From the UHGV virus genome UHGV-0038016: a stretch of DNA of 64,000 nt; one strand, written 5' to 3'. This document shows, one piece after another, positions 1,201 through 44,663 of this stretch; positions within the stretch are counted from its first letter, which is position 1, and each line of letters begins with the position of its first letter. The notes under the pieces are model-generated. The model worked only from the letters and a program-made list of their open reading frames with translations. It made no database searches and was not told the origin of the DNA. The DNA comes from a virus. The position numbers and the translations under genes were made by a program.

Positions 1201-3619
1201 CTAACATACCTCCTTCTGGAGTTTTTGGAGGGATAGCTTTAGTTTGTTCGTAACCTTCTGGATTATTCATAAATTTTGTAATATCTACATCATTATCTAA
1301 TACTTCTAATAATGTAATAATTCCAGTTCTTCCTCCAAAATTATATTGATCTCCTTGGTTTGTAAATATCAATTCTAATACATTTCCATCTGAATCATTT
1401 AATTTATTTGATACCACAACTGCTTTTCTATTATATTTAGTTGCTGATGGAATTTCTATATTAATTACTGAACCAATATCTAATAAATCTGGATGAGCAA
1501 CTACAGCTAACCCATTTTTAATTGGCAAACTATTCTCTACTGTAATAAAGTCTTCTGGTTCATACCGTCCTCTTACAGTAGTTGAAGTTGGAATGCCCTG
1601 TTCAAAATTAATATCTTCTACAAATTCTTCAGATAAATCAATATTCAAAGTCGCATATGTAGAATTAGCTACAGCCCAATGATTTTTTTCTAAATCTACT
1701 TGAGCAAAACCATTCTCTACAGCGTAAATATTCATACTTGTTTTTTCAGGAAGAATTCTTGGCGTTCCTTTCTCTATTGCTGGTTCTGCTACGTAAGTAG
1801 GAGCAGAATATACTTTTGTAGGTAATTTAGTTGAAATAGCCCCAATAGGAGAAGATGGTGTAGATAATCGTGAAACTGTTATTGCATCACTACTCTTAGG
1901 CACCCATAATTCATTAGAAGCTAATTGTAAACTAGTTTTACCAATTTCTTGTACTCTATAAACTTCATTGGAAGATAACCTTCTTTGAGATACTCCACCG
2001 ACATCAGCATTGGTTGCAACAACTGATTTTTTAACATTAACAACATATGTTCCTTTAGGGTCAATTGTAGGTTTTGAAGGTTTCCCCCCTCCTGATTGAG
2101 ATTGGTTATAATCTGCATCAGAAAAAATTCGTTTCACACCATAGATTTTTGGTCCCCAATAACTATCATTATAATTGTTTAATTTTGGACCTGGTGTAGA
2201 ACCAAAGTCAATCATTTTTCCTCCACCAACAACAATTCCAATATGAGTGGTTGTCATATTAGTAGCATAAGTTCCAGCAAAGAATATTAAGTCTCCTGCT
2301 CTAGCATCTTTGACGTCAACTTTTTTACCCCAACTTCCAAACCATTGGGCATCAGTATAACTTCCTATATCAACTTTAGCATGTTTTTGGTATAGATATT
2401 GACAGAATGAAGAACAGTCTCCAAAACCGCCTTTTCTTATTTGGGCAGGTCTTGTCCAAGAATAGGTCATTGACCCAAGCAAATCATTGGCTTCTTTAAT
2501 AATATTCTTAATTGTGCCTTCTCCATTTGGTATTAACCCATCAGCGCCAGTTCCTCCTCCACCACTATTATAGTCAGGATTTGTAATTACATCTTCTCCT
2601 TTTTCAATGGCATCACTTACCATTCCTACAAAGGCAGTATATAAGAAAGGATTATTATACCAGCTAATAGGTTCGCTTACTCCATCTACTTGCCAAGCTG
2701 GTAATACAGCGGTTGCAGGTATCTTATATGTTCTACATATTTCTGCAATAACTAAGGCTAATTTAATATTTAAATTGGTAGAAAAATTAGAAAGTGAACG
2801 TTTTGTTACTACTCCAATAGAGATAGTTTTTTTATTTGGATTACTCATGCCAGCAACTAAGCTTTTGCCTCTCTCCGCATGATAAACTCCTTCTGTAAAG
2901 GGCACTACTAATTGGGCGTCATTTTCCGAGATAATAACGTGATAGCCCATTTTTTGTCCACCATTTCCAGAATTAAGAATATTCCTTATTCCACCTAAAT
3001 TAGAACTACTTTGAATATCATGTACCACAATGGCTTGCATTGCTTCTAATTTAAACCCTGGTCTTGTAGTACCATTTTTCTTGATAAGATTTTCAGAAAA
3101 GTTTTTATAACCATTTCCTCCACCTATATCTCCACTGAATCCTCCGCCATCTCCACCAGAAAAAGCGTCTAAATCCCATGCTCTTAAATTATTAGCATTA
3201 ATAACTGACATAATTTTGCTTGGATAAGCAGGATCTGTTGCATAACCAGCGCTCCAAATTGCTGTGATTTGAGCTAAAGGATCTGTTTTCCCAATAGCAG
3301 CACGATAACGAGCATTTTCTGCAATTAATTTACCATGTTCCACAATGGAAACATCCCAACTAGGATACTTAGCAAAGGCGTCATTAATAGTTACATATCC
3401 CCCACCAGTCCACTCTTGGGTAGGGAAAACAATAGACTGCCCTTTATAACTTCCTTTTACACCAAACAGATTTTTCCCTTGTGTTGCTAGGGAACTTCTA
3501 CCCCAGTTTGACTCCAATGCTGCCTGAGCGGCAACAACAGAAGGTAAAACCTTATAGTTTTTCCAACTAGCATAAGCTCCACCTTTTATCTTTTTTAAAA
3601 AATCATCTGTAAAAGCCAT
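1187..3619 (-). CDS. endolysin / peptidoglycan hydrolase, multi-domain (GH73 glucosaminidase + amidase_2-like + NlpC/P60-CHAP-like + C-terminal binding region), 810 aa
   Basis: Lies immediately downstream of the holin. The N-terminus has AQAALESNWG...FGVKG, typical of GH73/FlgJ-like glucosaminidases. The middle has AIVVHDIQ...GYHVIISENDAQLVVPFTEGVYHAERG...NKKTISIGVV, an amidase_2/PGRP-like pattern. Further on, GFGDCSSFCQYLYQKH...LIFFAGTYATNMTTTHIGIVVG fits a Cys-His papain-like peptidase (NlpC/P60 or CHAP). Confidence 0.75.
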   Translation of the reverse strand: MAFTDDFLKKIKGGAYASWKNYKVLPSVVAAQAALESNWGRSSLATQGKNLFGVKGSYKGQSIVFPTQEWTGGGYVTINDAFAKYPSWDVSIVEHGKLIAENARYRAAIGKTDPLAQITAIWSAGYATDPAYPSKIMSVINANNLRAWDLDAFSGGDGGGFSGDIGGGNGYKNFSENLIKKNGTTRPGFKLEAMQAIVVHDIQSSSNLGGIRNILNSGNGGQKMGYHVIISENDAQLVVPFTEGVYHAERGKSLVAGMSNPNKKTISIGVVTKRSLSNFSTNLNIKLALVIAEICRTYKIPATAVLPAWQVDGVSEPISWYNNPFLYTAFVGMVSDAIEKGEDVITNPDYNSGGGGTGADGLIPNGEGTIKNIIKEANDLLGSMTYSWTRPAQIRKGGFGDCSSFCQYLYQKHAKVDIGSYTDAQWFGSWGKKVDVKDARAGDLIFFAGTYATNMTTTHIGIVVGGGKMIDFGSTPGPKLNNYNDSYWGPKIYGVKRIFSDADYNQSQSGGGKPSKPTIDPKGTYVVNVKKSVVATNADVGGVSQRRLSSNEVYRVQEIGKTSLQLASNELWVPKSSDAITVSRLSTPSSPIGAISTKLPTKVYSAPTYVAEPAIEKGTPRILPEKTSMNIYAVENGFAQVDLEKNHWAVANSTYATLNIDLSEEFVEDINFEQGIPTSTTVRGRYEPEDFITVENSLPIKNGLAVVAHPDLLDIGSVINIEIPSATKYNRKAVVVSNKLNDSDGNVLELIFTNQGDQYNFGGRTGIITLLEVLDNDVDITKFMNNPEGYEQTKAIPPKTPEGGMLGEPK

Positions 3620-3657
3620 TTATATACCTCCTTATAAATACTCTCTTTAATGTAAAA

Positions 3658-3690
3658 AAATAGGCTGTGCAATGACAGCCTATTGATTTA
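3658..3690. terminator. bidirectional intrinsic terminator between holin and lysin genes
   Basis: 8-bp perfect stem taggctgt/acagccta with loop gcaatg, flanked by an A-run on one side and a T-run on the other. Confidence 0.45.
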
Positions 3691-3696
3691 TTTTAT

Positions 3697-4026
3697 TTAT
3701 TTTTCTTGTTTAGTTTCATCTAGACCTTTTTCAAAGCCTTTTTTAGCAGCAGTATCAAATTGATTAGTTGCAATATAACCACCGATTAAACCACCAATTA
3801 TACCAACAATATAGTTAAGTCCTACAATTCCAAGAGCAGGAGCAATTGCCACTAGTACTGCTCCGATACCCCCTCCTAAAACTACTGCGATTAATTTAGT
3901 ATAATCGCTAGGAATAAAAGGTTTGATTAATTGAATAATATAAAATACGATTGGTGCCAAGATACCACCAAATGCTACCAAAGCAGCGAAAACATCTTGA
4001 ATTTGACTCATATCAATATTTGCCAT
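3697..4026 (-). CDS. holin (109 aa)
   Basis: Small protein with two or three hydrophobic helices rich in Gly/Ala/Ile (LVAFGGILAPIVFYIIQLI; LIAVVLGGGIGAVLVAIAPALGIVGLNYIVGIIGGLIGGYIA) and a charged C-terminus. Strong SD (attaaggagg). Sits directly upstream of the lysin. Confidence 0.65.
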   Translation of the reverse strand: MANIDMSQIQDVFAALVAFGGILAPIVFYIIQLIKPFIPSDYTKLIAVVLGGGIGAVLVAIAPALGIVGLNYIVGIIGGLIGGYIATNQFDTAAKKGFEKGLDETKQEK

Positions 4027-40190: not shown

Positions 40191-40559
40191 TTATATACCT
40201 GCTTTTTCCAAAAGATATCCAATATCAACAATTTCAAGTTCCCAATATGGAATTTCTACTAATGGGATGCCATGATTATGACAATATAAACGTTTTTGAT
40301 GATCGTTGTATTGTTGACGTTTAAATTTATTTTTTCCTCCAAAAGCAGCAACTGGTTCATAATGTTGCTCACCATTGACCTCTATAGCAAAATCTATATT
40401 TCCATCGTCGTCCATTACCATAAAGTCAAAAGCTAATTGGCGGCCGCTAGAAGCGACTAAATCAGGAAAACTGTATTCTTCTTCCCAATTAAAACCGTTT
40501 TCTTCTAAAATATGACGAATTCTTAAATGCCCCCTACTTACTCCAGAAAATGTACTCAT
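40191..40559 (-). CDS. free-standing Vsr/DUF559-like (PD-(D/E)xK) endonuclease, putative homing endonuclease (122 aa)
   Basis: DFAIEVNGEQH motif and C-terminal GIPLVEIPYWELEIVDIGYLLE resemble the DUF559/Vsr-like endonuclease signature (IExDGxxH ... G(Y)xVLRFWxxEV). Inserted between terL and the portal gene. Has its own SD (agaggtgg). A hairpin at about 40150-40190 lies downstream. Confidence 0.45.
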   Translation of the reverse strand: MSTFSGVSRGHLRIRHILEENGFNWEEEYSFPDLVASSGRQLAFDFMVMDDDGNIDFAIEVNGEQHYEPVAAFGGKNKFKRQQYNDHQKRLYCHNHGIPLVEIPYWELEIVDIGYLLEKAGI

Positions 40560-40576: not shown

Positions 40577-41551
40577 TTAGTTAAAGAATGCAAAGTTAGC
40601 AAGACTACTTTTCTTCTTATTCCGTTCTTTATCCTCTTGTAACTTAATTACATAAATTGCATACATTAAGGATGAAACCTTATCTTTACCCATTCCTTTA
40701 TTAATTCTATCTAAGCTAAATTTAGTACTATTATTTTCAGGTCTAGTTAAATTCATCATTTCATTCTTTAGCGTAGACGTTAATACAAAAGGTCTAATAG
40801 CATCAGCTTTTTGTCCTGCTGACATTGTTTTATATGCTTTTTTACTTTCTAAATCACCTTTTGCATCACGCTCATTTTGTAAATATCGAATTTTACCAGA
40901 ACCCATTTGTTGAAGTAGTGCAGTATAACCCTCAAAGTTTAATTCTGAATCGGCTTTAACAATCCATAAAACTTTACCATAGCTATCGCCATGATTATCA
41001 ATTTTTTTATAAAGACCTTTATCATCATTGACAACCTCAAAAGCAGAAAAACTTTCTCCTGTTTTACTATCCGAAGAAGGCATGACTAAATAGTCGACTA
41101 ATCCAATCCCTAAACCATTACCATCGACTACAACATAACGAGGCATATAATTTAAATATTGACGTTTGATTTCATTAGCTTGAATCCCAAAATGCTCCGA
41201 TTCAATAACAATCATATTAACTACAGATTTAATTCCTACACCATTACGCTGAGGATTTACCTTAACTACTGTAATAACAGTTTGCCAACCATTACGACCT
41301 ACATCGACTCCAAGCACATAATAAGCTTCATCATTTCCTCGACCACTTCTTGTAAATTCAGCCTGTTTTAAAATTCTACATCTATCAAAAACGTCTCCAT
41401 TATAGAATGATTCTGTCGCAGAACCAGCCCAAACAGATTCATATTCTCGGTTAAATGATACTTCGTCAAAAGTACCATCAGACTTTAAATCATTGACAAA
41501 ACCTGGATCTAATAATCCCATTTTAACAGGAGTTCTCCAAGTTCCTCCCAT
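40577..41551 (-). CDS. terL: terminase large subunit, C-terminal (nuclease) exon; reading frame stays open upstream to about 41644
   Basis: NREYESVWAG and YYVLGVDVGR...VVDGNG match the RNase H-like nuclease domain of large terminases. No stop codon occurs for 31 codons upstream of the annotated Met, consistent with a 3' exon that follows an intron. Confidence 0.7.
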   Translation of the reverse strand: MGGTWRTPVKMGLLDPGFVNDLKSDGTFDEVSFNREYESVWAGSATESFYNGDVFDRCRILKQAEFTRSGRGNDEAYYVLGVDVGRNGWQTVITVVKVNPQRNGVGIKSVVNMIVIESEHFGIQANEIKRQYLNYMPRYVVVDGNGLGIGLVDYLVMPSSDSKTGESFSAFEVVNDDKGLYKKIDNHGDSYGKVLWIVKADSELNFEGYTALLQQMGSGKIRYLQNERDAKGDLESKKAYKTMSAGQKADAIRPFVLTSTLKNEMMNLTRPENNSTKFSLDRINKGMGKDKVSSLMYAIYVIKLQEDKERNKKKSSLANFAFFN

Positions 41552-42787
41552 GATAATAGCGGTACCAGGTTTAATTAATTGCCATACTAATAACTGAATT
41601 TGTTTTTGGTAACTAAAATGGTCTTTAAAGCCAGCCGCGTGATGTTATGAAATTGACCATTAATCAATTTCCTATATATTTCTATATAGACCAGACTATA
41701 TCTTCATCTTCTTATTAAGAAGAGCTTCCCGCTACCTAGTGTACTAGGATACTTAGTCGTTGAACCTTCCCCATATCATTTTGACTTAGGGACTTGGCTG
41801 CTGATTGCCTCATAAGCAACAATTTTCTAACCTTCATATTTTCTTTTCAGAAATATTGTGGTTTGTTGCTCTCAAAGGGGTCCCAGCAATTCGAGAAGTT
41901 TGCTTTTCTTGCTCACGCAAGAATGACGCCATCTCTTGTTTTTCTTCACTTGTTTTTTTAAGGAAGGTATCACGATAGTCTCTATAAGACCTATCGTTTA
42001 TTATTTCAGTTAAAACATTTCCTCTAACATTAAAATATCTTGCTAATCTCTTCAAAGGAACTATTCTTCCTTGTTCTTCATTCAGTAAAACGCAATGAAC
42101 TTGAAATTCATTCAGTTTTCTTTTTGAGGTTGGCATAATAGTACTATTTCGTTTTTTCGAGATAAAGTCTGAGCTTTGACAAAAAGATTTAAAAATTTCA
42201 AATCTTTTATCATAATCCAACTTTTGATATTTTAGTGTATATTGGAAATGGCTACTTCCTTTTTTAATTCTACTTATTGTTGTTGTTGTTACATTAAAAA
42301 TTTCAGATAAAACTGCACCAGGTCTTGAAGAAAATTCTAATGCAGAATTAATTGCATATATATCTGATTCTATTAAATGAGAACCTCCATTTGTAGCTCC
42401 AGTATGTCCTCCAAGACCTCCTGGATTTTGATTATATCCATTATTATATGAATCAAAATTCTGAATCCAAAAAATCTCTCTTTGAGAAGCTTCTTTTACA
42501 CTTAAACTTTTTTCTTCTATAATTTCAAAAGAAAAAGCTTCTTTACCAAACAAATTATATTCTTTTTGTAAAAAAGAATTATGATGTCTTTGTGTCAGTA
42601 AATCTGTAAAATGTCTCAACTGTCTTCTAGCTATATTACTAGTTAGACCAATATATTTTTTAGAGTTTATTTTATTTTCTATTTTGTAAAACCAATAAGT
42701 AAATTTTTTATCTTCTTCCATTTTTAAAAAACTCCTTTATTTTATATTTTATTTATTATAAAATAAAGTACAAGTGAATTATAACTT
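41552..42787 (-). mobile_element. group I self-splicing intron interrupting terL, carrying a GIY-YIG homing endonuclease ORF (boundaries approximate)
   Basis: The minus-strand sequence at 41800-41650 contains ...CAGCAGCCAAGTCCCTAAGTCAA...GGTTCAACGACTAAGT...GGGAAGCTCTTCTTAATAAGAAGATGAAGATATAGTCTGG. This closely matches the conserved group I catalytic core (J6/7-P7-P3-J8/7 ...GCCAAGUCCUAAGUCAA... and ...GUUCACAGACUAAAUG...AAGAUAUAGUC of the Tetrahymena LSU intron, recalled from memory). It lies between the ATPase and nuclease halves of terL. Confidence 0.6.
41834..42721 (-). CDS. GIY-YIG family homing endonuclease (295 aa), intron-encoded
   Basis: N-terminus FTYWFYKIENKINSKKYIGLTSNIARRQLRH...EIFWIQ...YNGYN fits the GIY-YIG pattern (GIY...YIG...R...E...N). 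The C-terminal region resembles NUMOD/IENR-type DNA-binding helices. Confidence 0.75.
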   Translation of the reverse strand: MEEDKKFTYWFYKIENKINSKKYIGLTSNIARRQLRHFTDLLTQRHHNSFLQKEYNLFGKEAFSFEIIEEKSLSVKEASQREIFWIQNFDSYNNGYNQNPGGLGGHTGATNGGSHLIESDIYAINSALEFSSRPGAVLSEIFNVTTTTISRIKKGSSHFQYTLKYQKLDYDKRFEIFKSFCQSSDFISKKRNSTIMPTSKRKLNEFQVHCVLLNEEQGRIVPLKRLARYFNVRGNVLTEIINDRSYRDYRDTFLKKTSEEKQEMASFLREQEKQTSRIAGTPLRATNHNISEKKI

Positions 42788-43516
42788 TTAGATTATTAAC
42801 GTAATATAAACTTGAGATTTATTCATTTTATCATTAGGATCTACTTGTCCATTGGCAGCTCGACGAGATACGTTCATCATAGGCAAAATAACTTGTGAGA
42901 ATTTTTCCCCATCAACCAAAATAACCTCATCAATAAGTCCTGAATGTCGACGTCCACCACGAGAACTTTCTTTAGCTGCTACTACGTCGAATCGACTACC
43001 ATTTTTAAATACAACTTGCACATAATCTTTACCATTAAGCTTCGTTTGTCCTGGTGCCCAATTGATTTCTTTTCTAATTGATGGTATCATATCACAGATT
43101 TCATTAATTTTTTCTGCAGCAATACCAGCAGCCTGTTCTTTACCACCAGAGGTAATAAATACTTTAATTCCTGGATATAAAATACATTTTTCCATCATTA
43201 GCATAACAGACAAAAAAGATTTAGAAAAGGCACGTGTAAAAGTACCAAAAAAGTATTTATGCCTCATAGCAGCACGTAAAAATAATCTTTGGTAAAAGAA
43301 AAAATTAAATTTGCTATCTGGACCCTTTATCATATCAATAAACATGTCTGGGTATTCTCTCCAAAAGGAGACGTATTCTGTAAAAGTAGGAATGCTTGCA
43401 CGCACCCTCTCTTCTGTTAAAAATACTTCTCGATTTTTTTTAGAGTTAATAAAATCTGATTTAATATCAATAAGAGTTGTACTTTTGTCTTCATGTTTTT
43501 TATTCTTCGCCATCAA
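42788..43516 (-). CDS. terL: terminase large subunit, N-terminal (ATPase) exon (242 aa ORF; real 5' splice site probably upstream of the in-frame stop)
   Basis: Deviant Walker A GTFTRAFSKS, Walker B HSGLIDEV, and motif-III-like VFITSGG. Overlaps the upstream gene by 17 nt, as terS-terL pairs often do. Confidence 0.65.
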   Translation of the reverse strand: MMAKNKKHEDKSTTLIDIKSDFINSKKNREVFLTEERVRASIPTFTEYVSFWREYPDMFIDMIKGPDSKFNFFFYQRLFLRAAMRHKYFFGTFTRAFSKSFLSVMLMMEKCILYPGIKVFITSGGKEQAAGIAAEKINEICDMIPSIRKEINWAPGQTKLNGKDYVQVVFKNGSRFDVVAAKESSRGGRRHSGLIDEVILVDGEKFSQVILPMMNVSRRAANGQVDPNDKMNKSQVYITLII

Positions 43517-44663
43517 GTTCTACCCCCAATAACTTAGCCTCATCAGTAAGTTCTGGTAGAACCTCAGTATTAACAGCTTCAAACAATAAATCATCATCAG
43601 AGACCATGTCTTCTTCCACAAACAGAGCATCATCTGCAGACATTTGTTCTTTTTCTTCGTCCAATTTAATTTGTTCTAAGCCTTTTTCAATTAGAGAATC
43701 TAAGTTTAATTCTTTTTCAACTAAATTACGTACGTAGTTTGTGAAATCTCGCAATGTAACATCTACGATATCTTGTGGCTCATCTGTATGGTATACAGGA
43801 ATAAACCCTTCTTCTTCACATAAACGCACCATTTCAGAGATACTGTCAATGAATTTATCTTCCTCTTTCTCTTGGGAAGCAGTAAATTTAGCAGATTTCA
43901 TCATTTTATCATAGGTATTAGATAATTTCTGGTATTCATCATACATTCCTGAATCAATTAAACTGTGCATACGTAAAGAAACTTTACAGATTTGCTTTAA
44001 GTAATCTTCATGGGAAGCAGAAGTAATATCATAAGATTCATGCATTTCTCCATAAAAAGTTTCTAATTGAATTAATTCTTCTTCATTATATAAAGTTCCC
44101 CATTTAATTTTTAATTCTTTTATTTGAGTCTTAGTTAATGCAGGATCTTCATCTTCTGTATCAATTCTTCCTGCCATTAGTTGCATAGCAGTGTCAGGAT
44201 CATAACCTTTGTCTAATAAATCCTCTAGTTTTTGATGAAGTATATCACGTTTTTGTTGAATCTCTTGATCGTGTTGTTCCATAAATTGAGGAGTGTCAGA
44301 GAATTTATAACCTTTATATTGTTCTAATCGCATTTTACCAATATAGCGTCCTAAGACAGATTGGTTTGCATTTTTATTACGAATAGTTTTACCATCTTTA
44401 GATGTTGAGAATTCATATCGTTCTCTTAATGAATTCCACTCATCTGGAATATATGGAATATCAATTTCTTCCATAATCTTCATTACTGTTGATGGAGATT
44501 TTAAATCAATAAGAGATGCCATACATTTCTTACATTTTTTCATTGGATCTCCATTTTTATCTTTATAAAAATCCTTTGCAGGATAAAATCTATTACAATG
44601 TTCGCAGTGAATTTTTTCTGCTTGCATTTCTACTACTGACTTTTGTTTTTCTTCCTGAGCCAT
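43500..44663 (-). CDS. Zn-ribbon protein, candidate terminase small subunit (387 aa)
   Basis: N-terminal CEHCNRFYPAKDFYKDKNGDPMKKCKKC zinc ribbon, helical middle and acidic C-terminus. Position immediately upstream of terL and coupled to it. Confidence 0.3.
   Translation of the reverse strand: MAQEEKQKSVVEMQAEKIHCEHCNRFYPAKDFYKDKNGDPMKKCKKCMASLIDLKSPSTVMKIMEEIDIPYIPDEWNSLRERYEFSTSKDGKTIRNKNANQSVLGRYIGKMRLEQYKGYKFSDTPQFMEQHDQEIQQKRDILHQKLEDLLDKGYDPDTAMQLMAGRIDTEDEDPALTKTQIKELKIKWGTLYNEEELIQLETFYGEMHESYDITSASHEDYLKQICKVSLRMHSLIDSGMYDEYQKLSNTYDKMMKSAKFTASQEKEEDKFIDSISEMVRLCEEEGFIPVYHTDEPQDIVDVTLRDFTNYVRNLVEKELNLDSLIEKGLEQIKLDEEKEQMSADDALFVEEDMVSDDDLLFEAVNTEVLPELTDEAKLLGVELDGEE

Follow-up and report, generated by a model that had tools for sequence, protein, structure and literature searches.

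The large terminase gene (terL) of an Enterococcus phage, represented by UHGV virus genome UHGV-0038016, is very probably interrupted by a mobile group I intron that carries the gene of an I-TevI-type GIY-YIG homing endonuclease. The whole stretch of 64 000 nucleotides (nt) that was analysed is referred to as the window. Splice sites were assigned by comparison with intron-less relatives, the ribozyme was modelled on an alignment of five diverged lineages, and the terminase and endonuclease were identified by sequence and fold comparisons. Coordinates are collected in Table 1.

Boundaries of the intron and identity of the split gene

Seven records, all from Enterococcus phages of 134–142 kb, were found by megablast as relatives of the window (VRE9_1 to VRE9_4, H1, EF1 and EF5; 96–98.6 % identical to it). 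In phage H1, terL is uninterrupted (592 codons including the stop, annotated "terminase large subunit"), as it also is in VRE9_4, and alignment to H1 leaves a 1.16 kb insert in the window gene. With the splice sites marked by slashes, the junction reads ATC ACC AGT GCA GGC TTT in H1 and ATT ACG T/TAATAA... followed by ...CATCACG/CG GCT GGC TTT in the window. Five exon joins keep the frame; one alone has U as the last base of exon 1 and G as the last base of the intron. The exact splice sites were fixed in this way, because the comparison with H1 and VRE9_4 and the U/G rule together leave a single join. The 5′ splice site lies after U42799, the omega-G that ends the intron is G41638, and exon 2 opens at C41637. 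Ile-Thr-Ser-Ala-Gly is restored by this join, and the intron is placed after the first base of the Ser239 codon, in the invariant motif III (T-S-A-G) of the ATPase. The joined exons encode a TerL of 591 amino acids from the ATG at 43513, which aligns without gaps to the H1 protein (586/591 residues identical). The same start is used in H1; the list of open reading frames (ORFs) opens at an upstream TTG (43516). Exon 1 supplies Walker A (G-T-F-T-R-A-F-S-K-S) and Walker B (G-L-I-D-E), and exon 2 the remainder of motif III and the RNase-H-like nuclease domain.

A first-pass annotation of this DNA, made from the letters alone, had proposed a large terminase gene split into an ATPase half with Walker motifs and a nuclease half, about 1.2 kb apart, by a group I intron with a GIY-YIG ORF, and had named a covariance-model search and an alignment to intron-less homologues as checks. 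Both halves were recovered on the minus strand by direct reading: the ATPase frame at 43516–42788 and the nuclease ORF at 41551–40577, with its frame open upstream to 41644 and preceded by an in-frame TAA at 41647–41645. The distance was refined to exactly 1161 nt (42798–41638), and the stop at 42788, previously called probably intronic, indeed lies within the intron. The core strings that had been recognised by eye were located at 41800–41781 (CAGCCAAGTCCCTAAGTCAA) and 41766–41751 (GGTTCAACGACTAAGT). In the covariance-model search, Rfam family RF00028 (Intron_gpI) matched 41969–41672 on the minus strand over the full model (1–253) with 96 bits (gathering score 50; E = 1.6e-23). This was the single above-threshold Rfam match in the window; a relaxed-threshold Rfam scan of the same 64 kb gave no second group I element, and no tRNA genes were found in it. 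These sequence comparisons support a complete group I intron. Protein splicing by an intein and programmed frameshifting were rejected as explanations of the split, as stops occur in every exon frame of the insert and its ribozyme is complete.

The assignment of the split gene to the large terminases, also made in the first-pass annotation, was upheld by fold and by invariant motifs. It rests on the fold search because the sequence libraries gave nothing useful: the spliced TerL had no match in Pfam and no significant match in the PDB by sequence (phmmer) or with a 30-sequence profile. In PHROGs, only two unnamed families were matched, 15503 by the N half and 24618 by the C half, apparently N and C fragments from intron-split genes that were clustered as separate proteins. 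The TerL family comprises about 5000 homologues, nearly all of them single chains of 575–596 amino acids. An AlphaFold model of one full-length homologue with 73 % identity (P0001; predicted local distance difference test score 66.5, nuclease domain >80) was searched against the PDB with Foldseek. The top 43 matches were all large terminases, led by T4 gp17 (E = 8e-13) and followed by Sf6 gp2, HK97, D6E and the G20c nuclease domain at a template modelling (TM) score of about 0.7; TM scores against terminase nuclease domains were 0.65–0.72. The two-domain plan of TerL proteins (N-terminal ASCE ATPase and C-terminal RNase-H-like nuclease) is present in the model. Residues K98 and S99 (Walker A), E196 (Walker B), T238, A240 and G241 (motif III) and the acidic residues D350, D410 and D557 of the nuclease are invariant in 30 TerL homologues, and a portal gene (phrog_2739) lies two genes downstream. 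By predicted fold, invariant residues and portal neighbour, the identification as large terminase stands; the miss in curated families reflects sequence divergence and is no argument against the fold result.

Table 1. Positions of the exons, intron, ribozyme elements and endonuclease gene in the window, and of introns in terL genes of related phages. Intron sites are given as positions in the intron-less terL coding sequence (CDS); a slash marks the splice site.
Feature	Sequence	Position	Strand	Remarks
terL exon 1	window	42799–43513	minus	715 nt; codons 1–238 and first base of Ser239
Group I intron (CDS 715)	window, VRE9_1, VRE9_2	41638–42798 (window)	minus	1161 nt; GIY-YIG; by comparison with intron-less H1 and VRE9_4
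terL exon 2	window	40577–41637	minus	1061 nt including stop; colinear with H1 TerL
Stop of exon-1 frame (TAA)	window	42788–42790	minus	9 nt inside the intron; direct reading
P1 5′ strand, ACGU/UA	window	42797–42802	minus	spans 5′ splice site; pairs with UGGCGU
Internal guide sequence UGGCGU (P1 3′ strand)	window	41926–41931	minus	encodes part of endonuclease Met-Ala-Ser
P2 hairpin, UUCUUGC-GUGA-GCAAGAA	window	41906–41923	minus	GNRA loop; covariation; recovered by minimum free energy (MFE) folding
Catalytic core P3, P4, P5–P5c, P6/P6a, P7 pseudoknot, P7.1, P8, P9	window	41672–41898	minus	Rfam alignment
P9.1 hairpin and 3′ tail to omega-G	window	41638–41670	minus	P9.1 itself 41670–41650
GIY-YIG homing endonuclease gene	window	41834–42721	minus	295 amino acids; in the P1 loop
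12-bp A/U hairpin	window	42735–42768	minus	MFE and centroid folds; 3′ strand enters the Shine-Dalgarno sequence
Intron at CDS 590	VRE9_3 (L004)	1921–2929		1009 nt; another GIY-YIG gene
Intron at CDS 633	EF5 (L003)	2221–2493		273 nt; no ORF
Intron at CDS 723	EF5 (L003)	2584–2833		250 nt; no ORF
Intron at CDS 723	VRE9_3 (L004)	3063–3871		809 nt; HNH
Intron at CDS 910	EF5 (L003)	3021–3830		810 nt; HNH
Intron with related endonuclease	L032	~1990–3090		
Intron with related endonuclease	L033	~1990–3130		

Ribozyme and overlapping endonuclease gene

Relatives of the intron were gathered by using the endonuclease protein and a conserved P7/P7.1 string. A pattern search of IMG/VR returned one near-identical copy only; more were obtained from a metagenome scan and endonuclease-protein look-ups. 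The structure alignment is based on five diverged metagenomic lineages in which terL carries this intron at one and the same position: the window with L002, L012 and L025; L007; L008 with L021; L026 with L028–L031; and L027. All five have ACGU/UAA at the 5′ end and G/C at the 3′ end, and the terminal G41638 is kept throughout.

For assignment of P1, the intron was scanned for a G able to pair with U42799, and three candidates were obtained. UGGCGU is the sole one at an equivalent place in all five lineages, where it is kept as AUGGCGU; some 870 nt separate it from the 5′ splice site on its upstream side, and two bases from P2 on its downstream side. The resulting P1 has 6 bp (ACGUUA, 42802–42797, with UGGCGU, 41931–41926), and U42799 stands opposite G41929 as a U·G wobble. 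The candidate GCGUGA (41918–41913), which would pair with six exon bases, coincides in part with P2 and lacks the key G in L007 and L008; AGUGUAA (~42501, inside the ORF) is at a position conserved in no other lineage. The P1 proposed by the Rfam alignment itself (41969–41940, also inside the ORF) was discarded too, since the true 5′ splice site is 830 nt upstream.

The full model was built by hand and comprises P1, P2, P3, P4, P5, P5a–c, P6, P6a, P7, P7.1, P8, P9 and P9.1. On the five-lineage alignment, 98.5 % of the cells of its 84 pairs are paired (slid-partner controls, 36–48 %). Compensatory changes on both sides were found in 25 of the 84 pairs, and the observed covariation score was reached by none of 500 shuffles. 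In P2, two of the seven pairs show compensatory double changes across the lineages (U-A/C-G and G-C/U-A/C-G), in P9.1 all seven pairs have double changes in other lineages, and many compensatory pairs occur in P8, P9 and P9.1; P1, P4, P7 and P7.1 are without variation and are uninformative on covariation. The loop of P9 is GAAA. The ribozyme part alone has an MFE of −89.5 kcal mol−1 (z = −6.3 versus 200 shuffles), a value because of which a chance origin of the fold is excluded, and every core helix except the P7 pseudoknot is recovered by the MFE fold. P7.1 (41748–41735) is the only extra hairpin between P7 and P3′, and the intron is provisionally described as IA-like with one extra P7.1 hairpin. 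In L028 a coding-like extra insert of about 300 nt (~1870–2200, partly N-masked) was seen between P7.1 and the J8/7 strand.

The GIY-YIG ORF noted in the first-pass annotation encodes 295 amino acids and matches Pfam PF01541 over residues 9–97 (34.1 bits, cutoff 22.6); TIGR01453 (group I intron endonuclease) was matched with 44 bits, under its cutoff of 56. The N-terminal 98 residues align to the catalytic domain of I-TevI (1MK0, 1LN0; E = 5.5e-10, 33 % identity), and the model of the protein is superimposed on 1MK0 by Foldseek with a TM score of 0.86 and a root mean square deviation of 2.3 Å. All of the I-TevI catalytic residues (GIY Tyr, YIG Tyr, Arg27, His31, Glu75 and Asn90) are identical in the window protein, where they are Y12, Y23, R33, H37, E82 and N97, and these are invariant in 29 family members. 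About 255 homologues were found, and the ORF is intact in the five intron lineages at about 60 % identity. The model continues with a low-confidence linker (103–108), helical modules (118–276, with a confident last helix at 258–276) and a disordered end (281–295). Assignment as an I-TevI-type GIY-YIG enzyme is supported, and its activity is predicted.

The position of the ribozyme core downstream of the ORF, as described in the first-pass annotation, holds for the 3′ half of the core and fails for the 5′ half, which is overlapped by the end of the ORF. The last 33 endonuclease codons (from Met264) are at the same time the guide sequence, P2, P3, P4 and P5–P5c, and in each of the five lineages the UGA stop (41836–41834 in the window) is placed equivalently, behind the 3′ strand of P5c. 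The guide sequence and P2 encode (L/M)(A/V)S(L/F)LR, a segment present in 29 of 29 endonuclease family members, among which the end of the frame varies (after P2, in P3 or, as in the window, in P5). Endonuclease relatives with about 52 % identity were found in terL of more distant phages (L032 and L033), at a site 5 nt upstream (TATGT/TAA...). Their ribozyme has a different core type with P7.1 and P7.2; their ORF also ends over the guide sequence and P2, the guide in the corresponding codons being UUAGCAU, altered to suit that site. From these comparisons, extension of the ORF over the guide sequence and P2 is considered a fixed feature of the endonuclease family, and we conclude that what the protein contains beyond P2 is incidental read-through of ribozyme sequence.

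As the guide sequence and P2–P5 are all read within the endonuclease frame, translation of the end of that frame and folding of the ribozyme should be mutually exclusive on one RNA. It is conceivable, if rather doubtful, that the overlap is a real switch, with each transcript serving for terminase or for endonuclease. Completion of the endonuclease by a ribosome would then disrupt the ribozyme fold, and the ribozyme, once folded, would obstruct the last part of the frame; if so, the switch would time or limit the output of both terminase and endonuclease, and site choice by the ribozyme and site choice by the protein would have to co-evolve in the same codons.

Signals for expression of the endonuclease were also sought. 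In the 5′-terminal 77 nt of the intron, no sigma-70-like promoter was found on the minus strand, with totals equal to those of shuffled sequence. By eye, a consensus-like promoter (TTGACT-17 nt-TATAAT) was seen about 60 nt upstream of the endonuclease ATG in L026 and L030, with TACAAT in the L028 and L029 version. The Shine-Dalgarno sequence AAGGAG is at 42737–42732 and is entered by the 3′ strand of the A/U hairpin of Table 1. The 116-nt segment that holds this hairpin is not exceptional in stability (z = −1.15); comparable hairpins over the ribosome-binding site were seen by eye in L027, L007 and L028–L030. A regulatory role of the hairpin is a suggestion only.

The following course of events is proposed. 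Transcription of terL would pass through the intron, and ribosomes on exon 1 would halt at the intronic TAA. The exon end ACGU/UA would pair with the distant UGGCGU in a long-range P1, with the endonuclease gene looped out, and the core (P2–P9.1) would perform the two guanosine-dependent transesterifications, so that U42799 is ligated to C41637 and the mRNA for the 591-residue TerL is produced. The endonuclease presumably cuts intron-less terL alleles in mixed infections, after which repair would copy the intron in. Autocatalysis, the activity and target of the endonuclease and the interplay of translation and splicing are what we infer from the sequence.

Mobility and alternative readings

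The same insert as in the window was found in VRE9_1 and VRE9_2 (ribozyme part 99.7 % and endonuclease 100 % identical), in records in which no intron is annotated and the halves of terL are called hypothetical proteins. The intron is 99.7 % to fully identical in phages whose flanking genes differ by 2–3 %. The other relatives have none (H1 and VRE9_4), two (VRE9_3) or three (EF5 and EF1) other introns in terL, none of them marked as an intron in the records. Excision gives a full-length TerL in each phage. All of the sites fall on invariant residues, and a stretch of 320 nt of the gene contains five of them: one at Walker B, one at P211/M212, two in motif III and one at the R-E-Y-E-S motif. 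In L008 and likewise in L021, a micro-exon of 8 nt (CAGCCGGT; L008 2867–2874) stands between a window-type intron and an intron at the +8 site (EF5 type); the L008 contig stops inside the second intron, with the 3′ exon beyond view. The presence/absence polymorphism and the other introns in the terL genes of relatives point to mobility.

Across terL, the window differs from the intron-less alleles by 2.8–4.2 % on average. Differences cluster at CDS positions 711, 714–717 and 720; all are synonymous, including an AGT/TCG serine switch, and they coincide with bases of P1, P10 and the immediate flanks. Short co-conversion from a donor allele and escape of intron-less alleles from the endonuclease would both fit this cluster, and are left unranked.

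Several points weigh against a spliced and mobile intron. Splicing itself is deduced from the sequence. The P1 strands are invariant in all lineages, so that covariation cannot support this helix, and part of this conservation could be due to the Met-Ala-Ser codons that overlap the guide; P10 has at most 2 bp. Six of the 10 bases around the site differ between intron-less (ACC AGT GCA) and intron-bearing alleles (ACG TCG GCT), so the known alleles are at most candidate homing substrates. For the C-terminal part of the endonuclease, neither sequence nor Foldseek searches gave a significant match to a known DNA-binding domain; hints of a helix-turn-helix are weak (HTH_11, E = 0.096; Foldseek, E ~1; Pfam helix-turn-helix matches in three homologues).

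It is unlikely, in our judgement, that the intron is spliced in the cell and is not self-sufficient, requiring ribosomes, RNA chaperones or a phage or host protein. The short long-range P1 with its 870-nt loop and the minimal P10 would be in keeping with such a requirement, and some introns of the Bastillevirinae are spliced in vivo and not in vitro (PMC11878797). Against it, the core is complete and, by its folding energy, stable. Moreover, the td, nrdB and sunY introns of T4 self-splice despite large looped-out ORFs.

To about the same degree it is improbable that the ribozyme is functional and the intron immobile, that is, vertically inherited with an inactive or targetless endonuclease. 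The mismatched site of the known intron-less alleles, with its serine switch, and the unrecognisable DNA-binding region are what would be expected then. Against this reading, the ORF has stayed intact, with its full catalytic set, in five lineages that are about 60 % identical; the intron is nearly identical in phages with diverged flanking genes, and the same site is occupied in distantly related terL genes.

A dead intron, with TerL made as two polypeptides acting in trans (the ATPase up to the intronic TAA and the nuclease from the ATG at 41551), would account for the two separate ORFs listed by gene callers in VRE9_1, VRE9_2 and EF5 and for the separate N-half and C-half families in PHROGs, but is most improbable, since the ribozyme helices are all intact and maintained by compensatory changes in the five lineages, invariant motif III would be cut by the split and residues 239–270 would be missing from both fragments, the full-length homologues are all single chains of about 575–596 amino acids, and comparable terL introns splice (PMC11878797).

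Neighbouring genes, significance and comparison with known systems

Between terL and the portal gene, an ORF of 122 amino acids (40191–40559, minus strand) matches phrog_9084 (homing endonuclease; E = 1.2e-41) and phrog_559, and falls just under the cutoff of Pfam DUF2726 (24.5 versus 24.7 bits). In the Bastillevirinae, phrog_559 is a VSR-like nuclease inside terL introns (PMC11878797). The ORF occurs at the same place in H1, EF5, VRE9_3 and VRE9_4, and for this reason it looks like a free-standing, fixed nuclease gene. On the other side, a gene of 387 amino acids (43500–44663, minus strand; phrog_3314, unknown function) overlaps the start of terL by 14 nt with its end, and its homologues in related contigs match Pfam PF27269 (YonG_N). 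Its position suggests a product with a role in packaging, possibly the small subunit of the terminase.

Public records of VRE9_1, VRE9_2, VRE9_3, EF1 and EF5 show the terminase as two to four "hypothetical proteins" and mark no intron; the exact splice sites supply the true 591-amino-acid TerL for this phage clade. It is a clear example of an essential gene invaded by homing elements in its most conserved codons. A clade of phages that are 96–99 % identical and carry intron sites in varied combinations is a natural system for intron gain, loss and competition; nothing relevant was found in the literature on the VRE9 phages. Knowledge of how group I introns or GIY-YIG enzymes work is unchanged by the finding.

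The closest known systems are compared below. In the Bastillevirinae (SIOphi, phiAGATE), terL is interrupted by one to three group I introns, with splicing in vitro and in vivo, as shown experimentally for SIOphi TerL; most of these introns have a loop-encoded homing endonuclease, and nuclease–ribozyme overlap and small internal exons were described (PMC11878797). Introns in terL of Staphylococcus phage Twort are cited in PMC6409932. As in these Herelleviridae, the phage is a large virulent one with a Firmicutes host, and its large-terminase gene is interrupted by group I intron sequence. Unlike theirs, which belongs to phrog 675, the window TerL falls into phrog 15503/24618 and has no Pfam match; the host genus is Enterococcus, and the nuclease is an I-TevI-type GIY-YIG enzyme, whereas theirs are VSR-like or HNH.

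With the td intron of T4 and I-TevI, the window shares a probable group IA-type intron in an essential phage gene, an in-frame stop just inside the intron and a homologous catalytic domain. The ORF of td is looped out of P6a, whereas that of the window occupies the loop of P1 and extends over the ribozyme from the guide sequence to P5; the host gene is also different, and the C-terminal DNA-binding part of the window enzyme is unrelated to that of I-TevI at a detectable level.

The nrdF intron of the Bacillus cereus group is a group IA intron with P7.1 and P9.1 additions and encodes the GIY-YIG enzyme I-BthII in the loop of P6.1 (PMC2248736). Firmicutes origin, a probable group IA type, P7.1 with P9.1 and GIY-YIG are common to it and the window; the P6.1 location of its ORF and its ribonucleotide reductase host gene set it apart. 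In fungal mitochondrial IA1-like introns, genes of LAGLIDADG endonucleases lie in the P1 loop (PMC4964425). They share with the window an endonuclease gene between the two P1 strands, but differ in enzyme type and organellar host, and no ribozyme overlap is described for them. A large-terminase gene with a group I intron and an internal ORF was reportedly described for Lactobacillus phage LL-H by Mikkonen and Alatossava in 1995; this phage of lactic acid bacteria is said to be a small cos-type siphovirus with another terL family and another ORF than the window.

All of this is within known precedents, as terminase introns, group IA GIY-YIG enzymes and P1-loop ORFs are already described. The present case adds a new host clade, exact intron boundaries, a long-range P1 and an overlap of ORF and guide sequence that is conserved.

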